From Acidobacteriota bacterium (GTDB lineage Bacteria; Acidobacteriota; UBA6911; RPQK01; JAJDTT01): a DNA stretch of 64,000 nt. Each line of letters starts with the position of its first letter. Position 1 is the stretch's first letter. The stretch is from NCBI GenBank assembly GCA_965231825.1, contig OZ246889.1, positions 2,319,443 through 2,383,442 of the forward strand, given 5' to 3'. Below are positions 3,532 to 30,742 of this stretch, piece by piece. A program made the position numbers and the translations under genes. The notes beneath the pieces are model-generated. The model saw nothing but the letters and a program-made list of their open reading frames with translations. It did not search any database and was not told the DNA's origin.

Positions 3532-3606
3532 GTCCGATCCTCCGGTGATGAAGTAGGCTCGCTGCCCCCGTTTCGGGATTCAGGCTAACTTGGTCCGGGC
3601 AGAGGA

Positions 3607-4686: not shown

Positions 4687-5385
4687 TCAATCCATCCGAG
4701 TGATCGTCACTCTGGCAACGGGATTGCGCCAGTCTCCATCGGCGGCATTGATGTCGCCGGTGCCCCGAACCCCGTTGCTGATATAAACGAAGCCTTCGGG
4801 TTCGGCCGGATCGTGGAGGTGACTCCCGCAGGGTGGACCCGGAATGAAGTCACACGATTCGGAGTTCGCCTCGCTTCCAGCATCGTAGGCCGGAGCGTTC
4901 AATGTCATGGAGCGGGGCCCCGAGTAGTAAAAGGCCAGTCGGACCGGCAGTTGCACTCTGCTGACGGCGAAGAAAGAGTCATTGGTCGTTGCCAGCATGC
5001 CCACGACCGAAAGCCATCTGTATTTGGGCGAGCTCTCCACCATCACGCTGGCCGATTGACCGGGCGGGATCACCGGCGGGTCGCCGGGACCGAAGGCCAC
5101 CGCGGTGTCGAATACTCCCTCCATTCCCATTGCCGCTTCCATAAGCGGCATGGGGTTTCCCTCTTCCGCCAGCGTCGCCAATTCGGCGCTCGCGGGCTGT
5201 CCGACCGAGAAGAGGGAGGTGGAGCGATCATGAACCACGACCAACGGCGGGGTGATGAGCTGACCCCGGGTCAGGTTGTGGACCGTGACCTGGAAAGTGT
5301 CCCGAGCGAGGCCGGTGGCGCCGGACGCCAGGGCGAGAGACACAATGATGCAGACCATGAACATCGGATTCATCCTGAATTTCAT
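4687..5385 (-). CDS. Secreted spondin-N (reeler-like) domain protein, paralog 2
   Basis: Start MKFRMNPMFMVCIIVSLALASGATGLA (signal peptide, AAGGAG RBS). About 50-55% identical to paralog 1 (FQVTVHNLTRGQLITPPLVVVHD...). The 3' ends are near-identical at nucleotide level (cgtcactctggc.acgggattgcgccagtc). Confidence 0.7.
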   Translation of the reverse strand: MKFRMNPMFMVCIIVSLALASGATGLARDTFQVTVHNLTRGQLITPPLVVVHDRSTSLFSVGQPASAELATLAEEGNPMPLMEAAMGMEGVFDTAVAFGPGDPPVIPPGQSASVMVESSPKYRWLSVVGMLATTNDSFFAVSRVQLPVRLAFYYSGPRSMTLNAPAYDAGSEANSESCDFIPGPPCGSHLHDPAEPEGFVYISNGVRGTGDINAADGDWRNPVARVTITRMD

Positions 5386-5669
5386 CGGATTCTCCTTTAC
5401 GTCATTAAAGTTTTCTCCGCGGGAAGCCCGGAGCCTCCAAACTCGCACTTGGCCCGTAACGCGCCGGTACCTGGCGTCCGTCTGTTTTGGGAGTTGCGCG
5501 GGAAGGAGGTTCGGTGCCGCCCGGCTCGATAAGTCTGCGGCCACATGCTTACCGTTGCACTGTGCACACTTTCAGTTTATGAACTTTTTGCGCTCACTGT
5601 GAATTGGGGACTTGATCCGGGTCAGGAGGGATTTCTTCGGAGCGGCGTCAGCGCATTTTGCGCGGAGGC

Positions 5670-7595
5670 TCAGAGAACGACTCTTCCGTCGCCCTGGCGC
5701 CGGGTGATTCCCTTCCGGTCCAGATACTCGAGAAACGGGATGGCGTACTTGCGGGTGATCCCGAGGGAGTCCTTGAACTCGGGCACCGAAAACGATCGTC
5801 CGGGAGGGAACTTGATCTTGACCTCGTTCTTGAGACGTTGGACTTGGGACGGGGTCAGGACCAATTCACCGCCGACCCGGACCAGATCGCCTTGTTGGAT
5901 CAGGAAAAAATAGACGTCCTCGGTCCGGTCCGGCGGGTGGTGCAGCCGACGCTTCAGCTCCGTGAGGGTCGGAGGCCGGGGGAAGCTCTTCCGGAGAACA
6001 CCCAGAAGGGACTGTTGCACTGCTTCCTGAGCCGGGTTCAGACGGGGTTCCCAACCTCGCCGCATGACGATTGAGCGGTCGATGCGGATCAGATCGCGCT
6101 GCTCCAGCCGCCGTAGCAGGAAATGGAAGTAGTCGATGCGGGCGGAATTCAGGAACCGGTTCCGAAGCTCTTCCTTGGGAACGCCCGCCGCCAGTGGGTT
6201 GCGAGCGTGGCTCTCGTCCAGGTGGGCGAGTATCGACGATTCCAGATTTCGAACAGCTGCCCGCGTCACCGCCAGAGGCGGATCCTGGGGCACCAGGTCG
6301 AATTCCGGAAGCTGCTGCAGGTGCCTGAGAATACGCCCCGCCGGAGTGCCGATCCGGGCAGCCGTTTCGTTGACGTCGATTCCCATTTCCCCTTTGGACC
6401 GCACCAGGAACTCGATCCGAAGCGGATCCGGATCACGGTTTCCGGCTTCGAGCCCCGAATAAAGCGCCTTCGCCGGTAGCAGCTCCCCGGGAAGATTCCG
6501 GGCCCGGTGCCTGGGCGGGACGTCGTCCAACACCACTCCACCTCCGACGGTGACGGGTGGAGAGTCCATCCGGAGAATGAATCGGTCTCCAATCCAGCAC
6601 ACGGTCGGCTGCTCCAGACGGAGTTGAGCCAGGGCCCGTTGGCCGGGTGCCACCGTTTTTCCTTCCAGCGGATACACATGGCCCTGCCATTCTCCGCTGC
6701 CGTGGTGAAACCGGACCGGAGTCCGACGTTTGAGCGGCCGCGGAGCGCTCTCCAGTACCTTGATCGAGGCGTCCAGAGAACGAGTCGGACGTAGACCTCC
6801 GGGTCGGGAAAGGACCATCCCCCGTTTCAGGTCGTCCTTGCCCAAGCCCATGAGATTCAACGCAGTCCGCTGTCCGGCCACGGCCTCGCCGGCCTCCCGG
6901 TTGAAGATTTCGATGCGCCGGACCCTGCCCCCCTTTCCGGAAGGATAGATAGCCACGGCGTCTTCCTTCCGGATGATTCCCGAGGTCAGGGTGCCGGTCA
7001 CCACCGTCCCGAATCCTCGCTTGCTAAAGACCCGGTCCACCGGCAACCGGAACACTCTTTCGTGCCGGGAATCACGGTTTGGCTCCGATTTGGCGGCCTG
7101 CTCGATCAACGCCCTTTTGAGGGACTCCAGGCCGCTCCCCGTAATACTGTCCACGGCGATGACGGGACCGTTCTCGAGGAAGCTGCCCCGCGTCATGGTT
7201 CGAATCTCTTCCCGAACCAGGTTCAGAAGTTCCGGATCCACCGAATCACACTTGGTGAGGACGACGATTCCTCGAGGAATGTTCAGGAGCCGGCAGATGT
7301 GAAAATGCTCCAGCGTCTGCGGCATGATCGATTCGTCGGCGGCGACGATGAGCAGCGCCAGGTCGATTCCCCCGATGCCGGCCAGCATGTTCTTGACCAG
7401 CTTTTCGTGCCCCGGCACGTCGACGAACCCGATGCGGCAGGAGCCCAGGGACATGTGGGCGAAGCCGATGTCGATGGTAATCCCACGCCGCTTTTCTTCC
7501 GCCAGGCGGTCGGCGTCGATTCCCGTCAAGGCTTTCAGGAGGGTGGTCTTGCCATGATCGATGTGACCGGCGGTTCCGACCAGTATGTCTCTCAT
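5670..7595 (-). CDS. selB: Selenocysteine-specific elongation factor SelB
   Basis: [25 protein letters not shown]... GTPase domain, EF-Tu-like beta-barrel domains and C-terminal winged-helix SECIS-binding repeats. Start taken at internal M13 (7595), matching the canonical SelB N-terminus. Confidence 0.9.
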
Positions 7596-7717: not shown

Positions 7718-9049
7718 ATGTTCGAAAATTTGTCCTCCCGGCTCCAGAAAATTCTGAAGGACCTCAAGGGGGAGGGGCGCGTCTCCAAGGCGCACCTGAA
7801 TGCCTCTCTGCGCCAGATCCGCATCGCCCTGCTGGAGGCCGACGTCCATTTCGGCGTCGTCAAGTCGTTCATCTCCGGCATCCGGGAAAAGGCCCTGGGG
7901 CAGGAAGTGATGCGCAGCCTTACCCCGGGCCAACAGGTCGTGAAGATCGTCAACGAGGAACTCACTCGCCTCCTTGGATCGGAGGCGGCGGAGTTGGCCA
8001 AGGGAAGTCGGAGGCCGACCGTAATCGTTCTGGTCGGTCTGCAAGGGAGCGGCAAGACCACTACGACAGGGAAAATGGCGCGATGGCTCAAGGCCAAGGA
8101 TGGACGGCCCCTGATGGTGTCGACGGACGTCCGCCGGCCCGCGGCCATCCATCAACTCTCGGTAGTGGGCTCGGCCATCAGGGTCGAGGTGGAGGACCCC
8201 CCGACCCGGGACCCGGTTCGGCGAGCGAAAATGGCTCTGAAACGGGCCCGGAACATGGGGTTCGACCCGTTGCTCGTCGACACCGCAGGCCGTCTCCACG
8301 TGGATGACGCGTCTTTGACCGAGTTGCAGGAGATCGTGGCCGGGGTGGGGGCGCACGAAATTCTCCTGGTCGCCGATGCCATGACGGGTCAGGACGCCGT
8401 CCGCTCGGCCAAGAGCTTCGGAGACCGGCTCGATCTTTCCGGTGTGGTCCTCACCAAGATGGATGGGGACGCCCGCGGCGGAGCAGCTCTCTCGATCCGC
8501 ACCGTCACGGGTCAACCCATCAAATTCATCGGTACCGGTGAGGACTACGGCGCCTTCGAAACCTTTCATCCGGAGCGGATGGCCGGCCGGATCCTGGGCC
8601 AGGGGGACGTCCTCCGCCTCATCGAGAAGGCTCAAGCGGCCGTGACGCCGCAAGACAGCCGGAAGATTCTGGAGAAGATCCAAAGGGATGAATTCACCCT
8701 GGACGATTTCAGGTCCCAACTGCGGCAGCTCCGCAAGCTCGGACCCCTGGAACAGATTCTGGGCATGCTCCCGCAGGGAGGACTGTTCAAGGGGATGGGG
8801 CAAGTCCAGGTCGAAGAAAAGCAACTGGACACCATGGAGGCCATCATCAACTCCATGACCCCCTTGGAGCGGGCAAACCCCAGGATCATCAAGGGTTCCC
8901 GCCGCCGCCGGATCGCCCGCGGCAGCGGCCGGAAGGTGTCCGACGTCAACCGCCTCCTCAAACAGTATCTGCAGACTCGAACCATGATGAAACGGATGCA
9001 ACGGGGCTTTCCGGGCCGGTCGCGCGGACGTTTCAACTTCCCCGTCTAA
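7718..9049 (+). CDS. ffh: Signal recognition particle protein Ffh
   Basis: N domain, SRP54 G domain (GLQGSGKTTT, DTAGR) and M domain. 443 aa. Confidence 0.95.
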   Translation: MFENLSSRLQKILKDLKGEGRVSKAHLNASLRQIRIALLEADVHFGVVKSFISGIREKALGQEVMRSLTPGQQVVKIVNEELTRLLGSEAAELAKGSRRPTVIVLVGLQGSGKTTTTGKMARWLKAKDGRPLMVSTDVRRPAAIHQLSVVGSAIRVEVEDPPTRDPVRRAKMALKRARNMGFDPLLVDTAGRLHVDDASLTELQEIVAGVGAHEILLVADAMTGQDAVRSAKSFGDRLDLSGVVLTKMDGDARGGAALSIRTVTGQPIKFIGTGEDYGAFETFHPERMAGRILGQGDVLRLIEKAQAAVTPQDSRKILEKIQRDEFTLDDFRSQLRQLRKLGPLEQILGMLPQGGLFKGMGQVQVEEKQLDTMEAIINSMTPLERANPRIIKGSRRRRIARGSGRKVSDVNRLLKQYLQTRTMMKRMQRGFPGRSRGRFNFPV

Positions 9050-9091
9050 CGCCTCTTTTTGTTAAGATTGGATTTTGTCGGAGGTGATAGA

Positions 9092-9349
9092 TTGCTGAGA
9101 ATACGTCTAAGTCGACACGGCGCCAAGAAGGATCCTCATTATCGCGTTGTAGTAGCCGAACGCACGAGTCCCAGGGATGGGCGTTTCATTGAAATCCTGG
9201 GGTACTACAATCCAGCTCTCAAACCTGTTCGTCTCAGCTTGAATTTGGAGCGAATCGACCACTGGGTGAAACTGGGTGCTCAGCCTTCAGGAACGGTCAC
9301 GGGCCTGATCAGCAGAGTGCGGCAGCAAGAGCAGCCAGAAGTCAGTTGA
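9092..9349 (+). CDS. rpsP: 30S ribosomal protein S16
   Basis: [44 protein letters not shown] start at 9092 with a GGAGGTGA RBS at 9080-9087. The track ATG at 9059 would add a non-conserved extension. Confidence 0.85.
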
Positions 9350-9425
9350 TGGTCGCGAACAGGCTCGTGCAGGTGCCGTAGCGGCATCGGTCACGGGCTC
9401 CCGGCAGCACTGCCAGGAGGCAACT

Positions 9426-9656
9426 ATGAGAGAGCTTGTCGAGATGATCGCGAAGACGCTGGTTGACGATCCGGAAGAAGTTCGAGTGAGCGAGGTGGTG
9501 GGAGAACAGACCACCGTGCTTGAATTGAGGGTCGCGCAGCATGATCTTGGCAAGGTCATCGGCAGGCAGGGACGAACTGCCCGGGCCATGCGTACTTTGT
9601 TGGGCGCGGCCGGGATGAAGCTGCGCAAGAGATTCGTCCTGGAAATCCTTGAGTAG
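9426..9656 (+). CDS. KH-domain RNA-binding protein (YlqC/UPF0109 family)
   Basis: 76 aa; [35 protein letters not shown] is a KH fold motif. Conserved position between rpsP and rimM. Confidence 0.8.
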
Positions 9657-10172
9657 TTGAGTCAATTCATCGCCATAGCCCTCATCGTCAAGGCGAGGGG
9701 AATACGTGGTGAGGTTGCTGCGGAGGTTCTGACGGACTTCCCGGAGCGGTTCTCCTCTACGACCGGGGTTCGGGTGGCTCTTCCTGACGTGCAGTACCGG
9801 GAGGTCATCGAGTCCGCCCGTTTTCACAAGGGTCGCGTGCTGCTCAAGTTTCGGGGCCGGGAACGACCCGAACAGGTCCGGGAGTTGATTGGGGGGGAGG
9901 TTCAGATCCCGTTGGAGGAGCGCATGCCGCTCCCGGAAGGCTCGTTTTACGAGTCTGATCTCCTGGGTTTGAGAGTCGAGCAAAAGGGGCGCAACCTGGG
10001 GGTGGTCCTCGAATTGTTTCGTACCGGATCCGAAGGCGTGAATCTGGTGATCCGGGACGGGAGCGATCGGGAACTGATGATCCCCCTGGTACGTGCATTG
10101 GTTCGGGATGTGGATCTGGACCGAGGGATCATCCACGTGGATCTTCCGACGGGATTGGCTCCTTCCAGCTAG
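9657..10172 (+). CDS. rimM: 16S rRNA processing protein RimM
   Basis: KARGIRGEV...PRC-barrel C-terminal domain. Conserved synteny rpsP-rimM-trmD-rplS. Confidence 0.85.
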   Translation: MSQFIAIALIVKARGIRGEVAAEVLTDFPERFSSTTGVRVALPDVQYREVIESARFHKGRVLLKFRGRERPEQVRELIGGEVQIPLEERMPLPEGSFYESDLLGLRVEQKGRNLGVVLELFRTGSEGVNLVIRDGSDRELMIPLVRALVRDVDLDRGIIHVDLPTGLAPSS

Positions 10173-10231
10173 CAACTCGTCGCGAAACAGGCTGCGGACC
10201 GCCGGGTCGGTTTGCAGGAGTTCCTTCTGAA

Positions 10232-10936
10232 ATGCAGGTCGACGTCATCACCATTTTCCCTGGGATGTGTCAGGGATTTTTCGATTACGGTATCCTGCAC
10301 CAGGCGATCCGAAAGGGGTTGTTTCGCCTGGAGTTGGTCGACCTCAGGGAATTTACGGCCGACAGGCACCGGACGGTGGACGATCGGCCCTACGGAGGCG
10401 GAGAGGGCATGGTGCTCAAACCCGAACCCCTGTTCCGTGCGGTGGAACGATGCCGCCAGGTTCAGCGGAAGCCTTGGGTCGTGTATCCGAGTCCGCAAGG
10501 ATGCCGGTTCACGCAGGAGAAGGCGGCGGAACTGTCCCGGAAATCCCATCTGACGTTCATATGTGGGCGTTACGAGGGGGTGGATCAGAGAGCGTTGGAT
10601 GATCTGGTGGACGAAGAGATCTCGATGGGCGACTTCGTGGTCACGGGAGGCGAACTGCCGGCCCTGCTGATGGTGGACGCTGTCGTGCGGCTGATCCCGG
10701 GCGTGGTGGGCAAGCAGGCGTCATTGGAGCAGGAGTCGTTTGCCACCGGGTTGTTGGACTATCCTCAGTACACCCGGCCGGCCACTTACCGGGACCGGCC
10801 GGTCCCCGAGGTCCTGCTGTCGGGGAACCATGGAGAGATACGTTCCTGGCGGGAACAACAGGCTCTGAGACGTACTCGGGATCGCAGGCCCGATTTGCTC
10901 GCGCCGGGATCGAGTTCCGGCACGCCGAAAGGATAA
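10232..10936 (+). CDS. trmD: tRNA (guanine37-N1)-methyltransferase TrmD
   Basis: [12 protein letters not shown]...[15 protein letters not shown]...SPQG... SPOUT-family TrmD signature. Confidence 0.95.
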
Positions 10937-10946
10937 GGGTGGAGTC

Positions 10947-11288
10947 ATGAATCCGATACAACTGGTCGAACAGCCGCAGTTGAGGGATGGGATCCCGGAT
11001 TTCGGGCCTGGAGATACGGTGCGGGTCGACTTCAAGATCAGGGAGGGCAACAAGACTCGCGTGCAGTCCTTCGAGGGAGTCGTCATTGCCATTCGCAGAC
11101 GGGGCCTGGGTTCCACCTTCACGGTTCGCAGGATCTCGTTCGGCTACGGCGTGGAGCGCATTTTTCCGTTTCACTCCCCGTTGATCGAGGGCGTGCAGGT
11201 ATTGCGCAGAGGGCGAGTCCGGCGGGCCAAGCTCTACTATCTGCGCCAGCTCAAGGGGAAGAAGGCCAGGATCCGGGAGAAACGCTGA
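10947..11288 (+). CDS. rplS: 50S ribosomal protein L19
   Basis: 113 aa; ..[35 protein letters not shown].. matches the L19 family. Confidence 0.95.
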
Positions 11289-20897: not shown

Positions 20898-23246
20898 TCA
20901 GAAAGACGGTGCGGGAATGTCCTCCACCATGATGTTCGGTAGCGGTTCCGGTTCCGGCTTGGGTGTCTCAGACGCCTCTGAGCCTTCTTCTCCAGAATCT
21001 CTTTCTCCGGAGTCCCGTTCATCGGGGACCGCCTCTTCCACCGGTGCAGGAGCTGAAGTGGTCCGGCGGGCGGCGTAGAGTTCCGTCCCGAAGTTTCCCG
21101 GCGGAGTCTTGTCCACGGTCTCCTTCATGAAATCGATCCAGATGGGCAGGGCCAGGGTGCTGCCGTAGACTCTTTTACCCATCGACACCTTGGTGTCATG
21201 TCCCACCCACACGCCGGCGGTCAGCAGCTTGCTGAATCCCACGAACCAGCTGTCGGTACAGTCGTTGGTGGTGCCCGTCTTCCCGGCGACGGGAATGGGC
21301 AGGCTCCGGGCCTTGCGGCCGGTCCCAGTGAGGACCGCGTTTCTCAACAGGTCTACAAGCGCCTCGGCGGTTTTCGGCTTGACGACCTCGTCCACGCCGG
21401 CCTCGTGGCGTTCCAGAAGAACGCCATTCGAGTCCTCCACGCGGTCGATGAAATAGGGGTGGATCCGGACCCCGCCGTTGGGGAAGACGCTGAAGGCGGA
21501 CGTGATCTCCTCCAGCGTGACCTCGCCCGCTCCCAGCGCGGTGGGGAGATAGAGTGGGATTTCCCGGTCGATTCCGAACCGGTGCGCCACTTCGACGACT
21601 CTCTCGACGCCCATGGCGTTGGCCAGACGGAGCGTGGGGACGTTACGGGATTCCGCCAAGGCCTGACGGATGGGGATGCGGCCCTTGTATTTCTCGTCCG
21701 CGTTCTGGGGCCGGTAGGGGCGGCCCAGGCCGTCCAGAAACTGCACCGGGCTGTCCAGGACCGTGTCCTCGGGCGAATAACCGTTTTCCACCGCGGCCAC
21801 GTAGGTGAAGGGCTTGAAGACGGAACCGGGTTGCCTCTCAGCCTGGGTGGCTCGATTGAACTTGCTGTATCGAAAGTCGAACCCCCCAACCATGGCGCGA
21901 ATGGCGCCGGTCCTGCTCTCGATGGCCATCAGCGCCCCCTGGACCTCGGGAACCCGGTCCAGCTTCACTTCGACGGTCCGTTCCTCGCGGTTGATGCTCT
22001 CCAGGGTAAAGGCGCAGACGTCACCTGTCTTGAAGACCTGGTCCAGTCTTTTCTTTCGGGTCCAGTCCACATGCTCGGGCCGGACCGTGGCCCGGTAGCT
22101 GCCGACCTTCACCTCCGCCGTACGCTCATTCGATCGAAGGACGAGGCCGTGAACCATCTGGCCGGGAGAGAAGATCGTGTCCCAGTCGGAACGCCAATAT
22201 CCGTCCAACTTCTTCCCGGCCTCGAGGAGATTCTCTTTGGCGCCGCGCCATCTTCGCCGCTTCTTGTCGAACGCCTTCAATCCGTCACGAAGGGCCCTTT
22301 CTGCTGCCGTCTGAAGGTCGTAGTCCAGAGTCGTGTAAATCTTCAGACCTCTCGTGTGGATCTCCCCGCCGGGGTACCGTTTCTCCAGGTACTGGCGCAC
22401 CCATTCCACGAAATAGGGGGCCGATGCCTGTTGCCGGCCAAATGTCTTCAGGTCCAAGGGCGCCTGCATACTGACTCGCAGCGTCTCCGCGCCGATGAGG
22501 CCCTCCTCGTAGGTCCGCTCCAGCACCCAGTTTCTCCGTTTCAAGGCCCGTTCGGGATGATTGATGGGGGAATATCCTGCGGGATTCGGAAACACGCTGG
22601 CCAGCAGGGCCGCCTCATGCCACTCCAGTTCGTCCATGGTCTTCTGGAAGTAGAACTCGGAAGCGGCCGCCAGTCCGTATCTGCCGTGCCCCATGTACAT
22701 CTGGTTGACGTAGCGGGTGAAGATCTGCTCCTTGGACAGGGTGCGCTCGATCTGGATGGCGAAGATCATGTCCTTGATCTTGCGCATGATCGTCACCTCG
22801 GGACTGGTCAGCAGCAGTTTGCTCAACTGCATGGTGATGGTGGAGGCGCCTTTTCGTTCTCCGTAGGCGATGTTCCGGAAGATTTGGTAGATGAGGCGGG
22901 GGAAGTCGATGCCGGCGTGCCGAAAGAAGTCCGAGTCCTCGGCCGCCAGGATCGTATTCTTCACCGTGTCCGGAATCTTGTCGTAGGTGACGATCTGCCT
23001 CTTTTCCAATGCGTAAATCCCCAGCACCCGCCCGTCCGCCGAATAGACCTCGGAGATGACGTCCGGCCGGGACTGCTGCATTTCCCAGATCTGGGGCAGT
23101 TCAAAGCCCCAGGTGAGGGTCAAGCCGGTGAGGGACCCGGTTACCGCCGCCGCGATGATCAGAACGGCGCAGGTCGCCCAGACCAGAAATCTGCGCCGGC
23201 GGGGAGACGGCTTCTTGCGGGAGGAGGGTCGTTTTCGAGGGGGCAC
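20898..23246 (-). CDS. mrcA: Bifunctional penicillin-binding protein 1A (GT51 transglycosylase + transpeptidase)
   Basis: N-terminal TM, then the GT51 motifs (ILAAEDSDFFRHAGID, RKGASTITMQL). Transpeptidase domain with SxxK/KTGT motifs. Acidic low-complexity C-terminal tail. Confidence 0.9.
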   Translation of the reverse strand: MPPRKRPSSRKKPSPRRRRFLVWATCAVLIIAAAVTGSLTGLTLTWGFELPQIWEMQQSRPDVISEVYSADGRVLGIYALEKRQIVTYDKIPDTVKNTILAAEDSDFFRHAGIDFPRLIYQIFRNIAYGERKGASTITMQLSKLLLTSPEVTIMRKIKDMIFAIQIERTLSKEQIFTRYVNQMYMGHGRYGLAAASEFYFQKTMDELEWHEAALLASVFPNPAGYSPINHPERALKRRNWVLERTYEEGLIGAETLRVSMQAPLDLKTFGRQQASAPYFVEWVRQYLEKRYPGGEIHTRGLKIYTTLDYDLQTAAERALRDGLKAFDKKRRRWRGAKENLLEAGKKLDGYWRSDWDTIFSPGQMVHGLVLRSNERTAEVKVGSYRATVRPEHVDWTRKKRLDQVFKTGDVCAFTLESINREERTVEVKLDRVPEVQGALMAIESRTGAIRAMVGGFDFRYSKFNRATQAERQPGSVFKPFTYVAAVENGYSPEDTVLDSPVQFLDGLGRPYRPQNADEKYKGRIPIRQALAESRNVPTLRLANAMGVERVVEVAHRFGIDREIPLYLPTALGAGEVTLEEITSAFSVFPNGGVRIHPYFIDRVEDSNGVLLERHEAGVDEVVKPKTAEALVDLLRNAVLTGTGRKARSLPIPVAGKTGTTNDCTDSWFVGFSKLLTAGVWVGHDTKVSMGKRVYGSTLALPIWIDFMKETVDKTPPGNFGTELYAARRTTSAPAPVEEAVPDERDSGERDSGEEGSEASETPKPEPEPLPNIMVEDIPAPSF

Positions 23247-23402: not shown

Positions 23403-24509
23403 TCACTTCGACGCGAAGCGTGTGGCGACGTACTTCCCGGCATCGTTCTCGCTGAGCCGCACCGTGCCCGGGCCGCTCCGGACGTAGAGATCGCCCTTCC
23501 CGGCCTTCTCCAGGCTTTTCCATCGCAAGTAGACCGGCTCGGGACTTCGCTGGCAGCTCACCAGGCAAACGGTCTTGCCCTCCACAATCTGCATCCTGGG
23601 ATCGATGCAGGTGCCGGCCCGGTCGCCGAGTCCGTTGCGCACCACCTGGGCCAGGTGCAGCATGAACTTGTCGTCGGTCTCCAGGCGGTCATGCGCGATG
23701 CCCAGCACCTTGCGGTCGTCGTCCACGCCGATCAGGAGGTCCCCCCCTTCGGTGTTGAGGAATGCGGCAACGGTCTTGAGCGCCGCATGGGTCACGTGCT
23801 TGGGGTCCTTTCGATCCTCCTTCAGGTTCCAGCGGAGGCTCGACTTGAACTCCAGTGTCTTCGACTCCTGGTGCTTTAGCAATTCCTCCGCTCGCCGGTG
23901 CCGCCTGATGTAGTCGTCGAAGAGGAAGTTCTTGAGCGCCTGGCCGAAGTCGGGGTCGTCGGTGATCCGCTTGTAGAGGTCGAAGTTGGTCTCGACGATC
24001 TCCTGGATCTTGTCTTCCACCTTGGGGTCGAACGTCAGCCGCACGTTCTCGCGGGTGTTCACCCGGGCGCTGGCATCGAGGCCCGTGTCCCGGTCCAGGG
24101 CGGACCGGATCTGTTCCAGCGTCACGCGGTGTTCGCTGCCCAGGTTCAGACCGAAGAGCTCCAGGGGCTTGGGCTTCGGAGTGGCCGTGAAGGCGAACGT
24201 CGAGAGGTTGGGGAGCCGGCCGAGAAAACGCGGTTTCACATCGGTCCCATGGTGCTGCTTGAGCTTCTCCCACTTCTTCGGCTGGGTGGCTAGGAGGAAG
24301 TCGAGGACGTCGGCCGGGATCATGCAGAGCCTGCGGTCGTAGGCTTCGGGACGCCGCTTGTGGTAGCCGCCCGGCAAGGGATCATTGCCATATGCCTGCT
24401 GCGATTCCCTCACTGTCGTCGCGTCGCCCGGGCACGCGTCGGGCCCGTAACGCAGCAGCGCGCACTCTATCGCTTCCTCGAAGGCCCGCTCGGATACCTC
24501 CGAGCTCAC
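23403..24509 (-). CDS. Collapsed HsdR-like protein: HsdR N-terminal segment + relic TATP motif + C-terminal AlbA_2/Schlafen-like putative DNA-binding domain
   Basis: The N-terminus SERAFEEAIECALLRYGP...YDRRLCMIPADVLDFLLATQPKKWEKL resembles type I R-subunit N-termini. No PD-(D/E)xK nuclease core and no DEAD/helicase motifs I-II; only FAFTATP remains. The C-terminus ESKTLEFKSSL...TVAAFLNTEGGDLLIGVDDDRKVLGI matches the AlbA_2 domain. The ATG overlaps the hsdS stop (ATGA at 24506-24509). Confidence 0.6.
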   Translation of the reverse strand: MSSEVSERAFEEAIECALLRYGPDACPGDATTVRESQQAYGNDPLPGGYHKRRPEAYDRRLCMIPADVLDFLLATQPKKWEKLKQHHGTDVKPRFLGRLPNLSTFAFTATPKPKPLELFGLNLGSEHRVTLEQIRSALDRDTGLDASARVNTRENVRLTFDPKVEDKIQEIVETNFDLYKRITDDPDFGQALKNFLFDDYIRRHRRAEELLKHQESKTLEFKSSLRWNLKEDRKDPKHVTHAALKTVAAFLNTEGGDLLIGVDDDRKVLGIAHDRLETDDKFMLHLAQVVRNGLGDRAGTCIDPRMQIVEGKTVCLVSCQRSPEPVYLRWKSLEKAGKGDLYVRSGPGTVRLSENDAGKYVATRFASK

Positions 24510-25933
24510 GCGGTCTCCTTCCGGATGTCGATCTTGCCCGTGACAGCCGCAGAGATCAGGGCGGTGCGGAATTCTTTGAGGTGGACGATGGCTTGGCGTA
24601 CCTTCGCGATAAGAGTGTCGACTCTTGCCTTCTCATGAGCCAAGAAAGTTATGGTCGATGTTTGCTCTTTTACCGGCGGAATATTCAGCCAGACTTCTCG
24701 TAGCGAGTCCGAGTAGATGACGTCAATAGTGGTTGCATTGCTCATGAATCGTAGTTGATCGAGCACGATAGAGCATTCCTCGATCTGAATTTCGAGGAAG
24801 CGAGTTAAGATCCGGCGCCGGTCTGGTCGGACCCTCATCAAGCAAGGATGCAGAACGCCCCGCTCGGCCCCATCCGGCAGGATTGCACATCGCCCGATCG
24901 AGCCTTGCGTGGTGATCAATAAGTCACCAGGGAGGACCACAAATGCTCTGAGTTCTGCGAACTTCTCAAGCGAGACGTAGTTTTCACCACTCGAAAAGTC
25001 TCGATCAATCACGCTTCTTTGGTTGTATACCTTAATTTCGCCGGCCTGCATTTCAGAACTCTTGAGCTGACTTCCAAACGGCCCTGTCTTGATAGAGTCC
25101 TTGCTTGCTCTGAGGACGTGTTTCAGTTGCTTCACGTCCCAATGGGCCGGGGTCTGTCCCAACCACTCGATGCCGGAGTCCTTCATGGGGACGTTCGGGT
25201 CGAGGCCCCGGGTGATGGCCCGGGTGATGAGGGCGCTGCGTTTCTCCTGAAGCAACTCGATCAGCCGCTCCTTCCTCGCCACCAGCGCATCGATCCTTTC
25301 CGTTTCGCGGTCGAGGAATTTGACAATGGCGCGTTGTTCGTCTGACGGCGCCATCGGTAAGAGAATGGCTCCAAGAATAGAACCATTCAGATTCCCGAGC
25401 CCAGTTGTGGTTGACGAGAGGAAAATAAGCTGCTCGCGCGCAACCGGGCAGTTCATCAAATACCAGAAGAACCGGGGTAGGTGTTCGGCCGAGACCCTCA
25501 GGCGCTGCATGAAATTGGAGTAGCAGCAGTTCAGGGCTGCAATTGCTTCATCGACAACGGAGGTCTTCCCGATATGGTGTGTGCTTCCACTCGACTTCGC
25601 CACGAGCAGATCTCCCAATAACAGCTTGGCATAGGTCGCTTCGCGAGCGCTGAGTCGCCTTTGAGCTGGTTCTGTAATCCTCCACGCGCCACGCTTGGTT
25701 TGGTCGGTAGACCGCAGGACGATGGTTCCGTCGGCATCGAAGTCTTCACCCCAAACACCGCTGTCATTGCGAACCAGTGACGCCTTAAATGGCTTTGGGT
25801 TCCAATGTGCCGGAATCTTGCCTAGCCACTCGACGCCGGAGTCCCTGTACTTCGAGTAGGAAGGAAAGGGCCGTCGTTGAAGTTCGTCGATCCGATCATT
25901 TCCTTCGGTCACGCGGTCGGTCGCCTCAGTCAC
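24506..25933 (-). CDS. hsdS: Type I restriction-modification specificity subunit HsdS
   Basis: Two target-recognition domains, each preceded by the repeat DSGVEWLG.IPAHW (aa ~45 and ~265). Conserved central and C-terminal coiled regions. TRD DNA is visibly lower in GC. Likely GTG start at 25933 with a GGGAGG RBS; the ATG at 25981 is also possible. Confidence 0.9.
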   Translation of the reverse strand: MTEATDRVTEGNDRIDELQRRPFPSYSKYRDSGVEWLGKIPAHWNPKPFKASLVRNDSGVWGEDFDADGTIVLRSTDQTKRGAWRITEPAQRRLSAREATYAKLLLGDLLVAKSSGSTHHIGKTSVVDEAIAALNCCYSNFMQRLRVSAEHLPRFFWYLMNCPVAREQLIFLSSTTTGLGNLNGSILGAILLPMAPSDEQRAIVKFLDRETERIDALVARKERLIELLQEKRSALITRAITRGLDPNVPMKDSGIEWLGQTPAHWDVKQLKHVLRASKDSIKTGPFGSQLKSSEMQAGEIKVYNQRSVIDRDFSSGENYVSLEKFAELRAFVVLPGDLLITTQGSIGRCAILPDGAERGVLHPCLMRVRPDRRRILTRFLEIQIEECSIVLDQLRFMSNATTIDVIYSDSLREVWLNIPPVKEQTSTITFLAHEKARVDTLIAKVRQAIVHLKEFRTALISAAVTGKIDIRKETA

Positions 25934-26144
25934 CGCTCCCGCCTCCCGTCCGTGCCCGAATCCCAGGCCGCCACGGTCCACCCGCGGGCCAGACCTGGAT
26001 GAACGGGCTCTCCGCGATCAGGCTGTCGCAGACCGGTCCCAGGAAACGGCGCAGCTCCTCACCGACGTCCACGAGGCGATCCGGCCCATCGATGTCGGTC
26101 CCGATCTGCCGCCGCATCTCGCGGATCGCCTTTCGAGGAGTCAT
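25926..26144 (-). CDS. Small hypothetical ORF (72 aa) translationally coupled between abiEi-A and hsdS
   Basis: Its ATG overlaps the abiEi-A stop (ATGA at 26141-26144). Its stop overlaps the proposed hsdS GTG start (GTGACTGA). High-GC, Arg/Gly-rich, no recognisable domain. May be a non-functional relic (for example the stub of a deleted abiEii). Confidence 0.3.
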   Translation of the reverse strand: MTPRKAIREMRRQIGTDIDGPDRLVDVGEELRRFLGPVCDSLIAESPFIQVWPAGGPWRPGIRARTGGGSGD

Positions 26145-26797
26145 GCTGTCAGCACATCGAGTACCGGACCGACGAGCGACTTTGCTCGGCACACGTCGGC
26201 GGCCCGCCAGATCTGGTCGACGCTCGCCTTGCGGTCGCGCAGGGCGTCGCTTAGCGCCTCGATCGCGATGTCCTTGCCGACCAGCCGCCGGAAGCGGAAG
26301 CAGTCCACCACGGTGCGGGCCGGGCTCGTGATACGGACGGGGACCCCCTCGAAGGTCGCGTTCACGACGCCGTAGCGCAGCCTGACCCCGGAGAATCGCA
26401 CCACTCGGATCGGCAGCCCGGGCAGGCGGGGCGTGCGGGCCTTGTGCGGAATGGCGATCCAGACCTCGTGTGGGAGCTGCGTGCCGATCCCGTAGACGCT
26501 CAGGGCCGTCAGCAGGCAGACTACGGCGCTCGGGACCCGGGCGCACACGGCGGCCCGGGTGTAGTGCTCTGTCGGTTCCACGTGGGCGAGGCGGTAGAGC
26601 CCGCGCGCCACTCGCTCGACCGAACCGTCATCCACCAGGCGCCGGAGCGCACGTGAGTGGACGCCCAGAGCGGCCGCGTCGCGCGAACGGAAGAAGGTCT
26701 TGGAGCCGAGCCGCTGCAGGCTAGAGTCACCTGTCGGGGAATATCGCACTGAAATGTCGCCAGATGAATTCAGTTGTTTACCTTTCGATTCATGCAT
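26141..26797 (-). CDS. AbiEi-family (COG5340) antitoxin-like transcriptional regulator, copy A
   Basis: wHTH ..VARGLYRL.., then VVCLLTALSVYGIGTQLPHEVWIAIPHKAR...IRVVRFSG...GVPVRITSPARTVVDCFRFRR.VGKDIAIEAL. Same architecture as AbiEi. Confidence 0.7.
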   Translation of the reverse strand: MHESKGKQLNSSGDISVRYSPTGDSSLQRLGSKTFFRSRDAAALGVHSRALRRLVDDGSVERVARGLYRLAHVEPTEHYTRAAVCARVPSAVVCLLTALSVYGIGTQLPHEVWIAIPHKARTPRLPGLPIRVVRFSGVRLRYGVVNATFEGVPVRITSPARTVVDCFRFRRLVGKDIAIEALSDALRDRKASVDQIWRAADVCRAKSLVGPVLDVLTA

Positions 26798-27010
26798 GCC
26801 ATGAATATAACCGGTGTGAGCTGTCTAGATCAAAATGTCGATAACCATTAATATTTGCCGTCATTATCAGTCATTGGCCGGTTGTCTCGGAAAACAGGGC
26901 CACAATTTCCGTCTCCAGGATGTTCGCCTCGGTCTCCTCACCGGTCTCGCGACTGCGGGCGAGCAGCCGGTCGCGGACGGACGCCGAGATGTTCTTGAGC
27001 GGACGTGTCC

Positions 27011-27612
27011 TCACGACAGAACCGCTTCCATGTACGGCTGCAGGACCGTGCGCGCCCGGCAGACGCTGGCTGCGCGCATGATCTCATCCGGGGTGGCGAG
27101 CCGTTGGCGCAGCACGTCCCGGAGGGCCTCCAGGGCGGTGTCGAGGCCTAACTTGTTGCGGTACCGGAAGCAGTCGACGACCGTCCGGGCCGGCGATGTG
27201 ATGGCAACCGGCACGCCGAGCATTGGGCGGCGGCCGATCCCGTATGTGAGCATCGCCTTCGAGAACCAGACGACCCGAACCTGCGCCGGCACTCGGGCGG
27301 GGCGGCGCGCCTTGCGGTTGATGGCGATCCAGACCTCGTGAGGGGATTCAGTACCGATCTCGTAAACGCGGAGCGCGGTCATCAGGCAGACGATGGCGTG
27401 CGGCACGGCAGCAGCTACCATGGCGACCGTCTCCAGTTCCGTCGGCTCGACCTCGGCCAGCCGGTAAGGGCCGCCGCCGAGGTTCTCAACGGCTCCGGTC
27501 GCAACGAGTCCGCGGAGGCGACGGTAAGGGACACCGAACGGCTCGATGTCTCGCGGCCGGAAAAAGGCACCAATGCCGGCTGCTTCGAGCGCGGCCGCAG
27601 TGAGTTCAGCCA
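27011..27612 (-). CDS. AbiEi-family (COG5340) antitoxin-like transcriptional regulator, copy B
   Basis: About 55% identical to copy A (..GGGPYRLAEVEPTE..IVCLMTALRVYEIGTESPHEVWIAINRKAR..VRVVWFSK..VAITSPARTVVDCFRYRNKLGLDTALEAL..PYMEAVLS). Start taken at ATG 27612 (MAELTAAAL). The track start at 27733 would run through the upstream operator. Confidence 0.7.
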
Positions 27613-27628
27613 TGGATGTATAGTAATT

Positions 27629-27658
27629 TATGTCGGCATATAGGTAATAGTGCCGACA
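27629..27658 (-). promoter_or_regulatory. Perfect inverted repeat ATGTCGGCA-N12-TGCCGACAT just upstream of abiEi-B (candidate autoregulatory operator)
   Basis: Read directly: atgtcggcatataggtaatagtgccgacat, 9-bp arms, AT-rich spacer, within 20 nt of the ATG. Confidence 0.5.
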
Positions 27659-27729
27659 TTTTGTTCTTGCTTTGCTCAGGCCGCCATAGCCGTCGCTTCG
27701 CCTGTTTGCCGTCCAGGGCAGGCGGAGGT

Positions 27730-28158
27730 TCAAGGCGGGGCGAGCGGGTCGACACGCGTGACGGTGTCGATCTGATCGAAGTGCCGGTCTGCCGATAGCA
27801 GCCGATCGATGCCGTGGGCCTCCATCGTTGCGACGTGCAGGGCGTCCCGTGCCGGCAACCCGGGATGCTGCACCAGCAGTTCGACCGCACGGGCCGTCTG
27901 GGGTTCCGTCACCGGCAGGATCTCGTCGCAGATGTCAGTCACGGCCTGGTACACGGTCCGGGCGTCTTCGGGCCGCCTTCGGGGGGCGTGGTAGTGGAGG
28001 ATCTCCTGTAGGACTTCCGTGCTGGTGATCAACCTGGTCCCCTGCTCAGTCGCGGCCAGCAGAGCCCGTCGGCAGGCCTCCCGGTACTGGGCATCACTGC
28101 CCGCGAGGTACATGAACACGTTGGCGTCGACGAAAAGCGAGTCACGCACGCTCGTCAA
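27730..28158 (-). CDS. vapC: PIN-domain toxin VapC
   Basis: LFVDANVFMY..., TSTEVLQEIL, ARDALHVATMEAHGIDRLLSADRHFDQI: PIN-domain acidic residues. 4-nt overlap with the upstream antitoxin gene. Confidence 0.85.
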   Translation of the reverse strand: MTSVRDSLFVDANVFMYLAGSDAQYREACRRALLAATEQGTRLITSTEVLQEILHYHAPRRRPEDARTVYQAVTDICDEILPVTEPQTARAVELLVQHPGLPARDALHVATMEAHGIDRLLSADRHFDQIDTVTRVDPLAPP

Positions 28159-28460
28159 CTGTCCTCGTCACTCCCCAGACCTTCGCTGTTGTGGAGACAG
28201 TCGGTAGCCAGGCCGACCTTCAGCCGGCTGTACTGGCGCTCCCACTCCGGCAGCGATTTCGGCGCTGGGACCGCCCCCTTCGCGTACAGCCTGTCGATGG
28301 CCTCCAGTCGGCGTTGCTGCGCCTCCGGCAGAACGCAGTACTGCACGACGGCCTCCCGCACGACTGCGGCCAACTTCTTCCCTTCGCGTCGTGCAATTCG
28401 CGACACTGCCGCGTACGCTCTCGCATCGAGCGTCACTTGGACTCGCCGTGCACCTCCCAT
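28155..28460 (-). CDS. vapB: Antitoxin VapB (ribbon-helix-helix/CopG-like)
   Basis: MGGARRVQVTLDARAYAAVSRIARREGKKLAAVVREAV is an RHH N-terminus. Coupled to vapC. Start at internal ATG 28460, because the track start at 28481 lies within the promoter -10. Confidence 0.7.
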   Translation of the reverse strand: MGGARRVQVTLDARAYAAVSRIARREGKKLAAVVREAVVQYCVLPEAQQRRLEAIDRLYAKGAVPAPKSLPEWERQYSRLKVGLATDCLHNSEGLGSDEDS

Positions 28461-28461
28461 G

Positions 28462-28545
28462 GCCCGTGATCGTACAGACACATATGATTTGTGTCAACCA
28501 ATGTGACTCGATAAATTTGTGGTGTCAGATATGTGTCAACTCCTG
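28462..28545 (-). promoter_or_regulatory. Near-consensus sigma70 promoter plus direct-repeat operator for vapBC
   Basis: On the coding strand: GTTGACACA...GTTGACACAaatcatatgtgtctgTACGATcacgggccATG. The -35 TTGACA (28492-28497), a 17-nt spacer and the -10 TACGAT (28469-28474) imply a leaderless or very short-leader transcript. GTTGACACA occurs twice (28492-28500 and 28534-28542). Confidence 0.45.
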
Positions 28546-28627: not shown

Positions 28628-30742
28628 TCAAACGCGCATCTCTTCCAGCATCGCCGCGATCTCCTTCTCCACCTGCCGGATGTCGGCCTTGATCTCTTCC
28701 AAGGGACGGGGCGGCCGGTATTCGTAGAAGTAGCGATTGAAGTTGATCTCGTAGCCCACGAGCCCGACCTTTCCGTCCTGGGGGTCCCGGCGCTTCGAAT
28801 CGATCCAGGCGTCGGGAATGTGGGGCCTCACCTCGCGCTCGAAGAACGACTCGACAGCTTCGCTGAGGGGCACGTTCTCCGTGTCGCGGAGCTGCGGATC
28901 GGGCTCGGGCCGGCCCTTCCGGTCCCGGCAGACCGCGGCTTCGGTGTTGCGCTCGGACAGGGCGGAGAGCACAGCCTTCTTGATCGGCGCGGTGAGTTTC
29001 GGCCCGGCAGTTTGCGCTGCCCGGGAGAGCTCGGATTCGAAGTCAGCCCGATCCAGGAAGAGCCGGTCGGGCAGACTCCGGAGGAGGTCGCGGATCGTGG
29101 CCTGCTTCTCACGGCCCGCCCCTTCGTCCTTGGCCTTGGCCGCGCCCCTCTTTCGCGACCGCGCCAGGTTGATGAAGGCGCGCTGGTCGTCGAGCCGCGC
29201 GATCCGCTCGGGGCTGGCCTGGAAATCGAGCCGGAGCGGCCGTTCGACCGTGATCTTGCGGAAACGGAAATGCGTGGCCGGGTAGATGCGGCTGACGACC
29301 ACCTCCCGCTCCTCGCCGTTATCGTCCACGTTGCGGGTCGCGCCGTCCTCGAATTCCGCCAGCAGCCGCAGGATGTCCTCCTTGCGGTCGAACGGGATCT
29401 CCCGGCGCTTGGCTCCCAGGCTCTTTCGCAGCAGGACCCAGAACGACGTGGCGTTGATGAGCTGGACCTTGCCCCGCCGCTCGGGCCGTTTCCGGTTGGT
29501 AAGCACCCAGACGTAAGTGGCGATCCCGGTGTTGTAGAAGAGTTGTTCGGGCAGCGCGATGAGCGCCTCCAGCAGGTCGTTCTCCAGAATCCAGCGCCGG
29601 ATCTCACGCTCGTCGCTGCCGGCATAGCCCGTGAAGAGGGGCGATCCGTTCATGATGATGGCGATTCGGGAGCCGCCCTGTGAGGGTTCCTTGGAGTGCC
29701 CAAGCATGTGGAGGAGGAACAGGAGCTGGCCGTCGCTGATCCGCGGCAGACCCGGTGCGAAACGGCCGGCGGCGCCCCGGTCGTGCTCGGCCCGCACCGC
29801 GTCCTGGTCGCGTTTCCAGTCCTTGCCGTAGGGCGGATTGGCGATCATGTAGTCGAAGCCGGTTCCGGCGTGCCGGTCGTTCGAGAGCGTGCTCCCAAAG
29901 AGTACTCTCTTCGCGTCGCGGCCTTTTTTCGACTTTATGAAGAGGTCCGACTTGCAGATGGCATAGGTCTCCGGGTTCACCTCCTGGCCGAACAGGTGGA
30001 TGTGAGCGCCTGGGTTCACGGGGTTGGCCAGACGCGTGCCCTCTCGTATCTCGCCGAGGGTTGTGTGCTCCTTGGCGATGGTGAGCATGCCGCCTGAGCC
30101 GCAGCAAGGGTCGTAGACGCTTCGCGCAACGCCCTTCTTGCGCAGTTCTTCCTCGTCGCCGGCCAGCATCAGGTCCACCATGAGATGGACCACGTCGCGG
30201 GGCGTGAAGTGCTCGCCGGGATTTTCGTTGAGTGCCTCGTTGAATTTCCGGATGAGCTCCTCGAAGATCGTGCCCATCGTGAAGTTGTCGATGGCATTCG
30301 GATGGAGATTCACCTTCTTGGGGTCGCCGAAGCGCTGCATGACCAGAAAGAGGAGGCCCGCCTCGTCCAGCTTGGAGATGGTGTTGTCGAAGTCGAACTT
30401 CTCCAGCACCTCGCGCATGTTGGGACTGAACCCGGCGATGTAGTTGCGCAGGTTCTGCGCGATGTGTGGCGCGTCGGCGAGCAGCTTCGCGAAGTCGTAA
30501 CGCGAGGTGTTGTAGAAGGCGAATCCGGAGGCGCCTTGAAGCAGTCGGTCGGGGTTTTCGATCCTGCCCGTGTATTTGGCTTGAACCTCCAGCACTTTCG
30601 ACTTGGTGGGGGCCAGTACGCAGTCGAGCCGGCGAAGCACGGTGAGCGGGAGGATCACGTCCTGGTACTTTCCGCGCTTGAAGGTGTCGCGGATCAGGTC
30701 CGCCACCCCCCAGATGAAGCTGGTGATCTCGCTGTGGTTCAT
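28628..30742 (-). CDS. hsdM: Type I restriction-modification N6-adenine DNA methyltransferase HsdM
   Basis: HsdM N-terminal domain (SFIWGVADLIRD), AdoMet motif I (DPCCGSGGML) and motif IV (NPPYG). Start at ATG 30742 (MNHSEITSF). Confidence 0.95.
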   Translation of the reverse strand: MNHSEITSFIWGVADLIRDTFKRGKYQDVILPLTVLRRLDCVLAPTKSKVLEVQAKYTGRIENPDRLLQGASGFAFYNTSRYDFAKLLADAPHIAQNLRNYIAGFSPNMREVLEKFDFDNTISKLDEAGLLFLVMQRFGDPKKVNLHPNAIDNFTMGTIFEELIRKFNEALNENPGEHFTPRDVVHLMVDLMLAGDEEELRKKGVARSVYDPCCGSGGMLTIAKEHTTLGEIREGTRLANPVNPGAHIHLFGQEVNPETYAICKSDLFIKSKKGRDAKRVLFGSTLSNDRHAGTGFDYMIANPPYGKDWKRDQDAVRAEHDRGAAGRFAPGLPRISDGQLLFLLHMLGHSKEPSQGGSRIAIIMNGSPLFTGYAGSDEREIRRWILENDLLEALIALPEQLFYNTGIATYVWVLTNRKRPERRGKVQLINATSFWVLLRKSLGAKRREIPFDRKEDILRLLAEFEDGATRNVDDNGEEREVVVSRIYPATHFRFRKITVERPLRLDFQASPERIARLDDQRAFINLARSRKRGAAKAKDEGAGREKQATIRDLLRSLPDRLFLDRADFESELSRAAQTAGPKLTAPIKKAVLSALSERNTEAAVCRDRKGRPEPDPQLRDTENVPLSEAVESFFEREVRPHIPDAWIDSKRRDPQDGKVGLVGYEINFNRYFYEYRPPRPLEEIKADIRQVEKEIAAMLEEMRV

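Follow-up and report, generated by a model that had tools for sequence, protein, structure and literature searches.

An hsdR gene reduced by two in-frame deletions to an N-terminal stub, a motif III island and its native Schlafen/AlbA_2 module in an acidobacterial type I restriction-modification operon

The question raised by this locus was whether the short gene directly after hsdS encodes a new kind of fused defence protein or is what remains of a type I restriction subunit. The window, a 64-kb stretch (64,000 nucleotides) of DNA from an Acidobacteriota bacterium, contains a 368-aa ORF at 23403..24509; the ORF list indicated that the gene reported there by the original prediction is real, and its strand was corrected to minus. 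Using the ORF list, tblastn, and blastn against five relatives (L001-L005), we divided the encoded protein into an N-terminal stub, a motif III island and a C-terminal helical/SLFN_AlbA_2 module. These comparisons established the origin of the gene, its breakpoints and the loss of its catalytic parts. We regard it as a decay intermediate of hsdR whose only selected function, if any, is to keep the operon expressed, with a probability of about 0.8.

L001-L005, which are Acidobacteriota or Terriglobia MAG chromosomes, were collinear with the window on both sides (88-94% nucleotide identity in the flanks) and had the same gene order, hsdM...hsdS-hsdR-PBP1A, with hsdM and an RHH/PIN/AbiEi cassette upstream and, downstream, the PBP gene along with other collinear genes. 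All five carried an intact 1178-aa hsdR between hsdS and the PBP gene. When the parent HsdR was searched against the window by tblastn, three collinear pieces were found, corresponding to parent aa 1-99, 486-579, and 927-1178. In blastn with L001, nt 2-294 of the window gene matched parent nt 2-294 (84% identity), nt 288-369 matched parent nt 1464-1545 (93%), and nt 349-1107 matched parent nt 2779-3537 (95%); the window gene was composed of parent nt 1-297, 1464-1545, and 2779-3537. The junctions were read from a three-way nucleotide alignment of the window with the left and right parental sites of L001-L004. Junction 1 (24213..24221, minus strand) is a microhomology of GGCCGGCTC, encoding Gly-Arg-Leu at both parental sides, and marks a deletion of 1176 nt (392 codons). 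Junction 2 (24151..24161, minus strand) is a microhomology of GAGC(T/G)CTTCGG, encoding E-L/R-F-G, and marks a deletion of 1254 nt (418 codons). Both deletions were in frame and each lay at a microhomology of 9-11 nt, which is a classic signature of short-repeat-mediated deletion; they may have arisen by replication slippage or illegitimate recombination. The parental right side of junction 2 lies within an inverted repeat, CGAAGCGC-N7-GCGCTTCG. A hairpin hot spot at this junction was considered from the 8-10 bp inverted repeat and was rejected, as the 80-nt DNA fold was not exceptional (z = -1.06).

The two hsdR deletions removed the PD-(D/E)xK core, Walker A, DEAH, RecA domain 2, and most of the helical domain. 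Parent aa 100-489, which include the HSDR_N core (aa 143-230) and the start of SWI2_SNF2/ResIII at aa 302, were missing from the window, in agreement with the earlier observation that the nuclease core and helicase motifs I-II are absent. The gene still encodes parent aa 1-99, a motif III island of 20 aa, and the final 252 aa. Since the nuclease and the ATPase were lost, the remnant is unable to translocate or cut DNA; it is hsdR by descent, yet it fails the defining nuclease and SF2 motor features of HsdR. One of the two readings first offered for this gene, an internally deleted hsdR, was therefore borne out: compared with the intact orthologues at syntenic loci, the gene has two in-frame deletions flanked by microhomology.

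The retained 5' end of hsdR (aa 1-96; 24222..24509, minus strand) is the segment with 84% nucleotide identity to L001, and aa 1-99 of the remnant were 83% identical to aa 1-99 of the full-length 1178-aa HsdR in tblastn. The proposed HsdR-like N-terminus was thereby upheld, though Pfam HSDR_N gives no score. The remnant starts with GTG, which overlaps the hsdS stop codon as GTGA, and an AAGGAG Shine-Dalgarno sequence is located upstream. The overlap had been recognized correctly but read as ATGA, which is the arrangement in the intact relative L001, where hsdR starts with ATG. From the GTGA overlap, the remnant is probably co-translated with hsdS. The helicase motif III island (PNLSTFAFTATPKPKPL; 24162..24212, minus strand) lies within the stretch 93% identical to nt 1464-1545 of L001 hsdR, and FAFTATP (aa 105-111), previously noted as a lone trace of motif III, is a genuine piece of that motif. 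T115P was the sole window-unique change in the island. In the AF2 model, pLDDT was below 50 in the island, and aa 1-113, the island included, were largely of low confidence.

The next segment, the C-terminal helical region of HsdR (aa about 120-214, parent about 930-1024; 23868..24150, minus strand), showed 95% nucleotide and 98% amino acid identity to L001, and helices were modeled at aa 124-211 with pLDDT of about 70-87. The SLFN_AlbA_2 domain (aa 215-352; 23454..23867, minus strand), with E215-x4-E220-x-K222 and GGDLLIGVDDD, matched Pfam PF04326 (E=1e-19; 71.6 bits, where the cutoff is 25.3), and the model had an alpha/beta AlbA_2 fold at aa 236-363. A PDB sequence search with the remnant matched SLFN11 and a Schlafen N-domain chain, and the fold search with the model gave DIP2311 (3lmm), the SAMD9 DNA-binding domain, and SLFN13/11/14 (hits 3lmm, 7ksp, 5yd0, and 7fex). 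The AlbA_2 assignment of the original prediction was confirmed by both the Pfam score and the fold search. A check for residual RecA-like folds, which it had also proposed, detected none in the fold search of the AF2 model, in which the matches were AlbA_2/Schlafen structures only. On the 368-aa protein, Pfam gave no match to HSDR_N, ResIII, SWI2_SNF2, or DEAD, and only SLFN_AlbA_2 scored; NCBIfam and PADLOC gave no match for the remnant and no defence-system model. In phmmer, ESKTLEFK (aa 215-222) was aligned on ESQLVEFK of SLFN11, so that E215, E220, and K222 correspond to E209, E214, and K216, which are essential for the tRNase activity of SLFN11 (PMC9482658). The ExxxxEFK motif was also kept in distant HsdR-AlbA_2 proteins. 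The 368-aa protein is a bona fide PF04326 member, with putative nucleic-acid binding or cleavage activity.

To place the remnant among its relatives, the 368-aa sequence was used as a query, and 1175 homologous proteins were obtained. Most aligned only to the last 68% of the query, with 70-93% identity, and a few short proteins held both query ends with different junctions. A scan of one genome per species revealed a relative encoded at 151 loci, and 80 of these were retained. At most of the 80, the N- and C-terminal matches were part of one unbroken ORF of approximately 1178 aa, the former lying about 2.78 kb upstream of the latter. From these loci, 55 uninterrupted ORFs of 1150-1215 aa were taken, and the SLFN_AlbA_2 C-terminus was present in every one. 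The HsdR of L001 contained HSDR_N (aa 143-230), SWI2_SNF2/ResIII/DEAD (302-543), a T1R_D3-like region (678-735), and SLFN_AlbA_2 (1025-1162), and the whole protein matched TIGR00348 (hsdR) and PADLOC REase_I. The closest solved structure of the parent by sequence was EcoR124I HsdR (2w00). Distant HsdR proteins of 1141-1329 aa, with 32-40% identity, had the same architecture including AlbA_2. The native architecture of the parent subfamily is a PD-(D/E)xK nuclease, an SF2 motor, a helical domain, and a C-terminal Schlafen/AlbA_2 domain, the last being an addition to the textbook HsdR.

Because AlbA_2 was found in the full-length ORFs and in distant homologues, it is native to this HsdR subfamily and was not captured. 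The alternative, that a foreign AlbA_2 module was acquired by an hsdR fragment or that a distinct DNA-sensing partner was recruited to the methyltransferase, was suggested by the domain composition of the 368-aa protein and nothing else. It is scarcely credible, given that HsdR runs without a break into AlbA_2 in the 55 full-length ORFs and the distant homologues, and that the last 252 aa of the window protein share 98% identity with the end of the intact HsdR of the syntenic L001. Both forms of this proposal came from the original prediction and had to be abandoned: the 1178-aa parent natively ends in this module, and the gene is orthologous to hsdR by position and sequence rather than an independent partner of an M2S1 enzyme. 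The possibility that the C-terminal module is an unusually conserved mobile cassette was also rejected, as the 55 full-length copies were about 75-97% identical over the whole protein, with the lowest conservation at aa 31-60 and in the linker at aa 871-930. The HsdR-Schlafen subfamily has spread horizontally, its C-terminus being 75-98% identical across MAGs labeled with at least eight phylum-level groups.

The remnant is the final gene of a minus-strand operon that starts with hsdM (28628..30739). This gene appears intact (Pfam HsdM_N and N6_Mtase, E=3e-53 and 2e-23) and belongs to a block with 92% nucleotide identity to L001. It is followed on the same strand by a cassette inserted into the operon (26141..28481), in which Pfam identified RHH (28155-28481), PIN (27730-28158), an AbiEi-like paralogue (27011-27733), and AbiEi (26141-26797), each on the minus strand; the cassette is also present in L001 and L085. 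The hsdS gene (24506..25933, minus strand; Pfam Methylase_S, NCBIfam PRK09737) likewise appears intact, with a probable GTG start at 25933, and when it was compared with those of L001-L005, the conserved regions aligned and the TRDs differed. Between abiEi and hsdS, L001 has a 322-aa AbiEii-like ORF (L001 positions 4900-5868), and the counterpart in L085 scores as PF08843 AbiEii in Pfam. The window retains a 72-aa in-frame remnant of this abiEii toxin gene (25926..26144, minus strand), which still overlaps the probable hsdS start. Relative to L001 it has a 753-nt deletion with the microhomology CGCGA, the third in-frame deletion of the operon. An intact AbiE pair was not found; AbiEi is present and the AbiEii nucleotidyltransferase toxin is reduced to the 72-aa remnant. 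On the 3' side of the hsdR remnant is a 782-aa ORF (20898-23246), and no terminator-like site was found in the 156 nt between the two; in L085, which is syntenic, the corresponding protein contains Transgly and Transpeptidase (class A PBP). The 64-kb window contained no second hsdR and no complete type I R-M set, as hsdM and hsdS look intact and hsdR is disabled. The operon retains hsdM and hsdS but has no functional restriction subunit, and the locus acts, at most, as an HsdM/HsdS methyltransferase.

The parent was a full-length type I restriction subunit of the approximately 1178-aa HsdR-AlbA_2 subfamily, and the two microhomology-mediated deletions stripped it of nuclease and motor in this lineage. 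On the favored reading, the remnant is a recent decay intermediate and not a selected new protein, and the deletion in abiEii is probably one more step in this disarming or decay. Decay is supported by the intact hsdR in most of the 80 loci and in L001-L005, the third deletion within the same operon, the change of the start codon from ATG to GTG relative to L001, the unique T115P in the motif III island, and the low AF2 confidence over much of aa 1-113 together with the absence of a RecA-like fold. An assembly artefact, in which a full-length hsdR exists but was collapsed, was also considered, as the window comes from a metagenome-style long contig (5.17 Mb in the cluster record). This explanation is very improbable, since three clean in-frame deletions at short direct repeats do not resemble the errors made by assemblers of long or short reads, an assembly cannot collapse at repeats of 5-11 nt, the window contains zero Ns, and its flanks are collinear with the relatives.

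More weight has to be given to the possibility that the 368-aa product is a functional mini-protein, in which the helical and Schlafen module is fused to the hsdS-coupled start and serves as a putative effector, docked on M2S1 or free. Its proposed role would be that of a nucleic-acid-binding or nuclease effector kept after selection against DNA restriction. Several features of the gene argue for this reading and against decay. The reading frame survived both hsdR deletions without a frameshift or stop codon, and all three deletions of the operon were multiples of 3, for which the chance is about 1/27 if frames are random; the Shine-Dalgarno sequence, the overlapping start, and the catalytic-type residues E215, E220, and K222 were kept. 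On the window branch, the C-terminal 245 codons had 10 synonymous changes and 1 non-synonymous change, with no relaxation. The N-terminal stub had 7 synonymous and 4 non-synonymous changes and resembled the intact relatives. Very recent deletions would likewise be expected to show the ratio of 10:1, and the preserved frame may reflect selection for translational coupling, selection against polarity (abiEii being upstream of hsdS), or the chance of about 1/27. The shared junction of L081 and L082 was tried as a post-deletion dN/dS test and was rejected: the two are 98% identical overall, with a C-terminus 6.5% divergent and flanks divergent by 0.3% or less. Because the C-terminus is a recombination tract, their dN/dS of 0.13 reflects divergence between intact alleles and not purifying selection after the deletion, which counts against a functional mini-protein. 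L082 had only 5x coverage and carries indels.

The fate of hsdR in other genomes bears on the same choice. In the syntenic L085 and L086, hsdS is fragmented and hsdR carries several out-of-frame deletions that leave ORFs of 168 and 336 aa, with an interruption of hsdM as well in L086. This decay, independent of that in the window, supports the decay reading, and the out-of-frame loss in a sister lineage speaks against a selected mini-protein. In unrelated genomes, internal-deletion variants had different junctions and mostly formed clusters of 1-2 member sequences (P0017 had five). The operon context was read in four variant lineages, and two of them, L081/L082 and L084, had heavily degraded operons: no recognizable hsdM or hsdS was found at the L081 and L082 variant loci, and the L084 context comprised only an hsdM stub and a Fic gene. 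Such differing junctions, small clusters, and degraded operons favor decay. For a functional mini-protein, it is unfavorable that no clade other than L081/L082 has a common deletion allele, and that several variants lie in operons without hsdM and/or hsdS. Among the points in its favor, L083 retains hsdM, AbiEi/AbiEii, and hsdS beside a 547-aa hsdR variant, thus pairing an intact hsdM and hsdS with a shortened protein, and at least seven independent in-frame variants hold both the N- and C-terminal parts.

The right-hand breakpoints of these variants cluster in the linker before the module. They lay at parent aa 899-931, a variable linker preceding the retained module, in at least 10 independent remnants and elsewhere in only two; one of the clustered remnants, P0210, is an in-frame hsdM-hsdR fusion. 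This clustering, which counts against decay, could reflect selection for the retained module, but it is partly an ascertainment effect, as the query and the ranking used to find variants favor proteins keeping parent aa 927-1178. The overall pattern of variants is as expected for recurrent, transient decay of a widely transferred defence gene, and a functional mini-protein in the window is, on all of this evidence, unlikely. The "C-terminal only" proteins of 258-640 aa were considered as a short-protein family and rejected, as 106 of the top 120 hits were fragments collinear with the C-terminus, which, judging by the names of their records, seem to derive from contig ends or low-coverage long-read assemblies.

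A broader and rather doubtful idea is that this HsdR subfamily has a built-in Schlafen-type nuclease as a second, possibly RNA-directed or abortive, effector, and that the window protein is one of the functional mini-effectors kept by lineages shedding DNA restriction. If so, in-frame deletions ending at parent aa about 899-931 would repeatedly yield a "mini-HsdR" that is coupled in translation and functions either together with the M2S1 methyltransferase or on its own. Decay remains our preferred reading, and under it the gene is a degenerate representative of a familiar type, mostly the result of ordinary gene decay. The annotation of the locus should be corrected to hsdM/hsdS with a disabled hsdR; neither a novel fusion protein for defence nor a recruited sensor should be annotated here.

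Compared with type I HsdR, the window gene has the same position directly after hsdS, the same overlapping start, and three segments orthologous to the full-length protein, but its product differs in having no PD-(D/E)xK core, Walker A/DEAH, RecA domain 2, or most of the helical domain. The locus resembles solitary type I methyltransferases after hsdR loss in its apparently intact hsdM and hsdS and disabled hsdR, and it resembles pseudogene decay by short-repeat deletion in the direct repeats of 5-11 nt that flank its deletions. It differs from both in that all three deletions are in frame and the remnant encodes a complete folded domain. The natural series from intact through in-frame-deleted to out-of-frame-decayed hsdR illustrates how type I systems are disarmed via short-repeat deletions while the methyltransferase is kept.

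The remnant shares its Pfam score, fold, and E-x4-E-x-K motif with Schlafen/AlbA_2 proteins (SLFN11/13/14, SAMD9, and DIP2311), whereas in this gene the domain forms the end of a restriction subunit and its activity is putative. Many bacterial AlbA_2 proteins or SLFN-pAgo carry a GHKL/HATPase_c_4 or helicase partner domain, which the remnant does not have. In the EcoprrI system, a type I R-M enzyme keeps the latent tRNA anticodon nuclease PrrC silent (PMC2610378). Conceptually only, the HsdR-Schlafen proteins are similar in having a potential RNase-type module physically tied to a type I R-M enzyme; PrrC differs in that it consists of an ABC ATPase and an ACNase domain, is encoded by a separate gene, and has no sequence or domain kinship with the HsdR-fused Schlafen domain. 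By this analogy, a PrrC-like role is an attractive possibility for the intact parent family, not for the remnant. The large HsdR subfamily with a Schlafen/AlbA_2 C-terminus and an intact nuclease-type E-x4-E-x-K is the more interesting by-product of this analysis and a good experimental target for what the Schlafen domain adds to a restriction motor; its clustered, often in-frame reduction to the Schlafen tail is also of interest. In the literature searched, we found no description of a fusion of HsdR or type I restriction with AlbA_2/Schlafen. A preprint has linked Schlafen-ATPase modules with type I S subunits in Poribacteria.

The intact HsdR-Schlafen gene, encoding 1178 aa, was approximately 75–97% identical over its length among the related loci L001–L080 (for example, L001 7223–10759). 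According to the MAG labels, its carriers belonged to Acidobacteriota, Gemmatimonadota/Longimicrobiales, Chloroflexota/Dehalococcoidia, Gammaproteobacteria, Spirochaetota, Actinomycetota, Binatia, and Deltaproteobacteria. The C-terminus of HsdR-Schlafen showed 75–98% identity across MAGs of all labelled groups compared, and such similarity between these groups implies a recent horizontal spread of the gene. Several isolate names (COS, SB0665, and Plut) hinted at a possible origin in sponge or coral holobionts.

Among independent remnants of hsdR, the breakpoints on the right-hand side of the deletion or truncation were clustered at aa 899–931 of the full-length parent, just before ...LSRIIEALNERFG|LNLG. 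This cluster was drawn from thirteen proteins found in the homologue search with the 368-aa window remnant (P0001, P0003, P0010, P0013, P0017, P0030, P0048, P0051, P0061, P0109, P0115, P0126, and P0210), the last of which consisted of the N-terminus of hsdM fused in-frame to the C-terminus of hsdR at the same spot. Selection, a hot spot, or ascertainment may have caused the clustering. In two internal-deletion variants, L081 (8001–9131) and L082 (8001–9032), the mini-hsdR junction was identical. The C-terminal 263 codons of the two genes differed by 6.5% at the nucleotide level with a dN/dS of 0.13, and their flanks by no more than 0.3%, the L082 sequence being of low coverage (5x) and containing indels. 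Judged from this comparison, the Schlafen end had been replaced by a recombination tract. In L085 and L086, syntenic sister genomes of the window, hsdS and hsdR (8181–11011) had decayed by multiple out-of-frame deletions, independently of the decay in the window, and hsdM of L086 was additionally interrupted by an opposite-strand gene of 378 aa.

An in-frame AbiEii toxin gene remnant of 72 aa was present on the minus strand of the window (25926–26144). Comparison with L001 4900–5868, from a syntenic Acidobacteriota chromosome, indicated that 753 nt had been deleted at the microhomology CGCGA; the antitoxin-like AbiEi genes were retained alongside the remnant, and its stop still overlapped the probable hsdS start. 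The insert between hsdM and hsdS (26141–28481, minus strand) comprised two AbiEi-like paralogues, with approximately 65% nucleotide identity to one another, together with an RHH and a PIN gene forming a VapBC-like pair, and this cassette was conserved in the syntenic relatives L001 and L085. When hsdS of the window (24506–25933) was compared with those of L001–L005, the genes were alignable only in the conserved central and terminal regions, and TRD1 of the window was shared with L004 alone. Target-recognition domains have therefore been swapped among these close relatives.

Several other architectures were observed. The hsdR ORF of L022, L030, L031, L035, and L044 (start at approximately 6671) encoded 1355 aa with an N-terminal extension of approximately 177 aa; the N-terminal stub of hsdR was present in additional copies upstream in L022 and L031, and a second, partial copy of the Schlafen tail lay downstream in L035 (14820–15370). 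The distant HsdR-AlbA_2 protein P0158 (1329 aa) had an extra C-terminal Peptidase_S24 (LexA-like) domain behind the Schlafen domain. A large group of proteins of approximately 430 aa (P0177, P0187, and many of approximately 420–435 aa) possessed a C-terminal AlbA_2 domain with an intact ExxxxEFK motif and approximately 45% identity to that of the window remnant, and their N-terminal 270 aa had no match in Pfam. In P0224, TPR repeats took the place of this N-terminal region.
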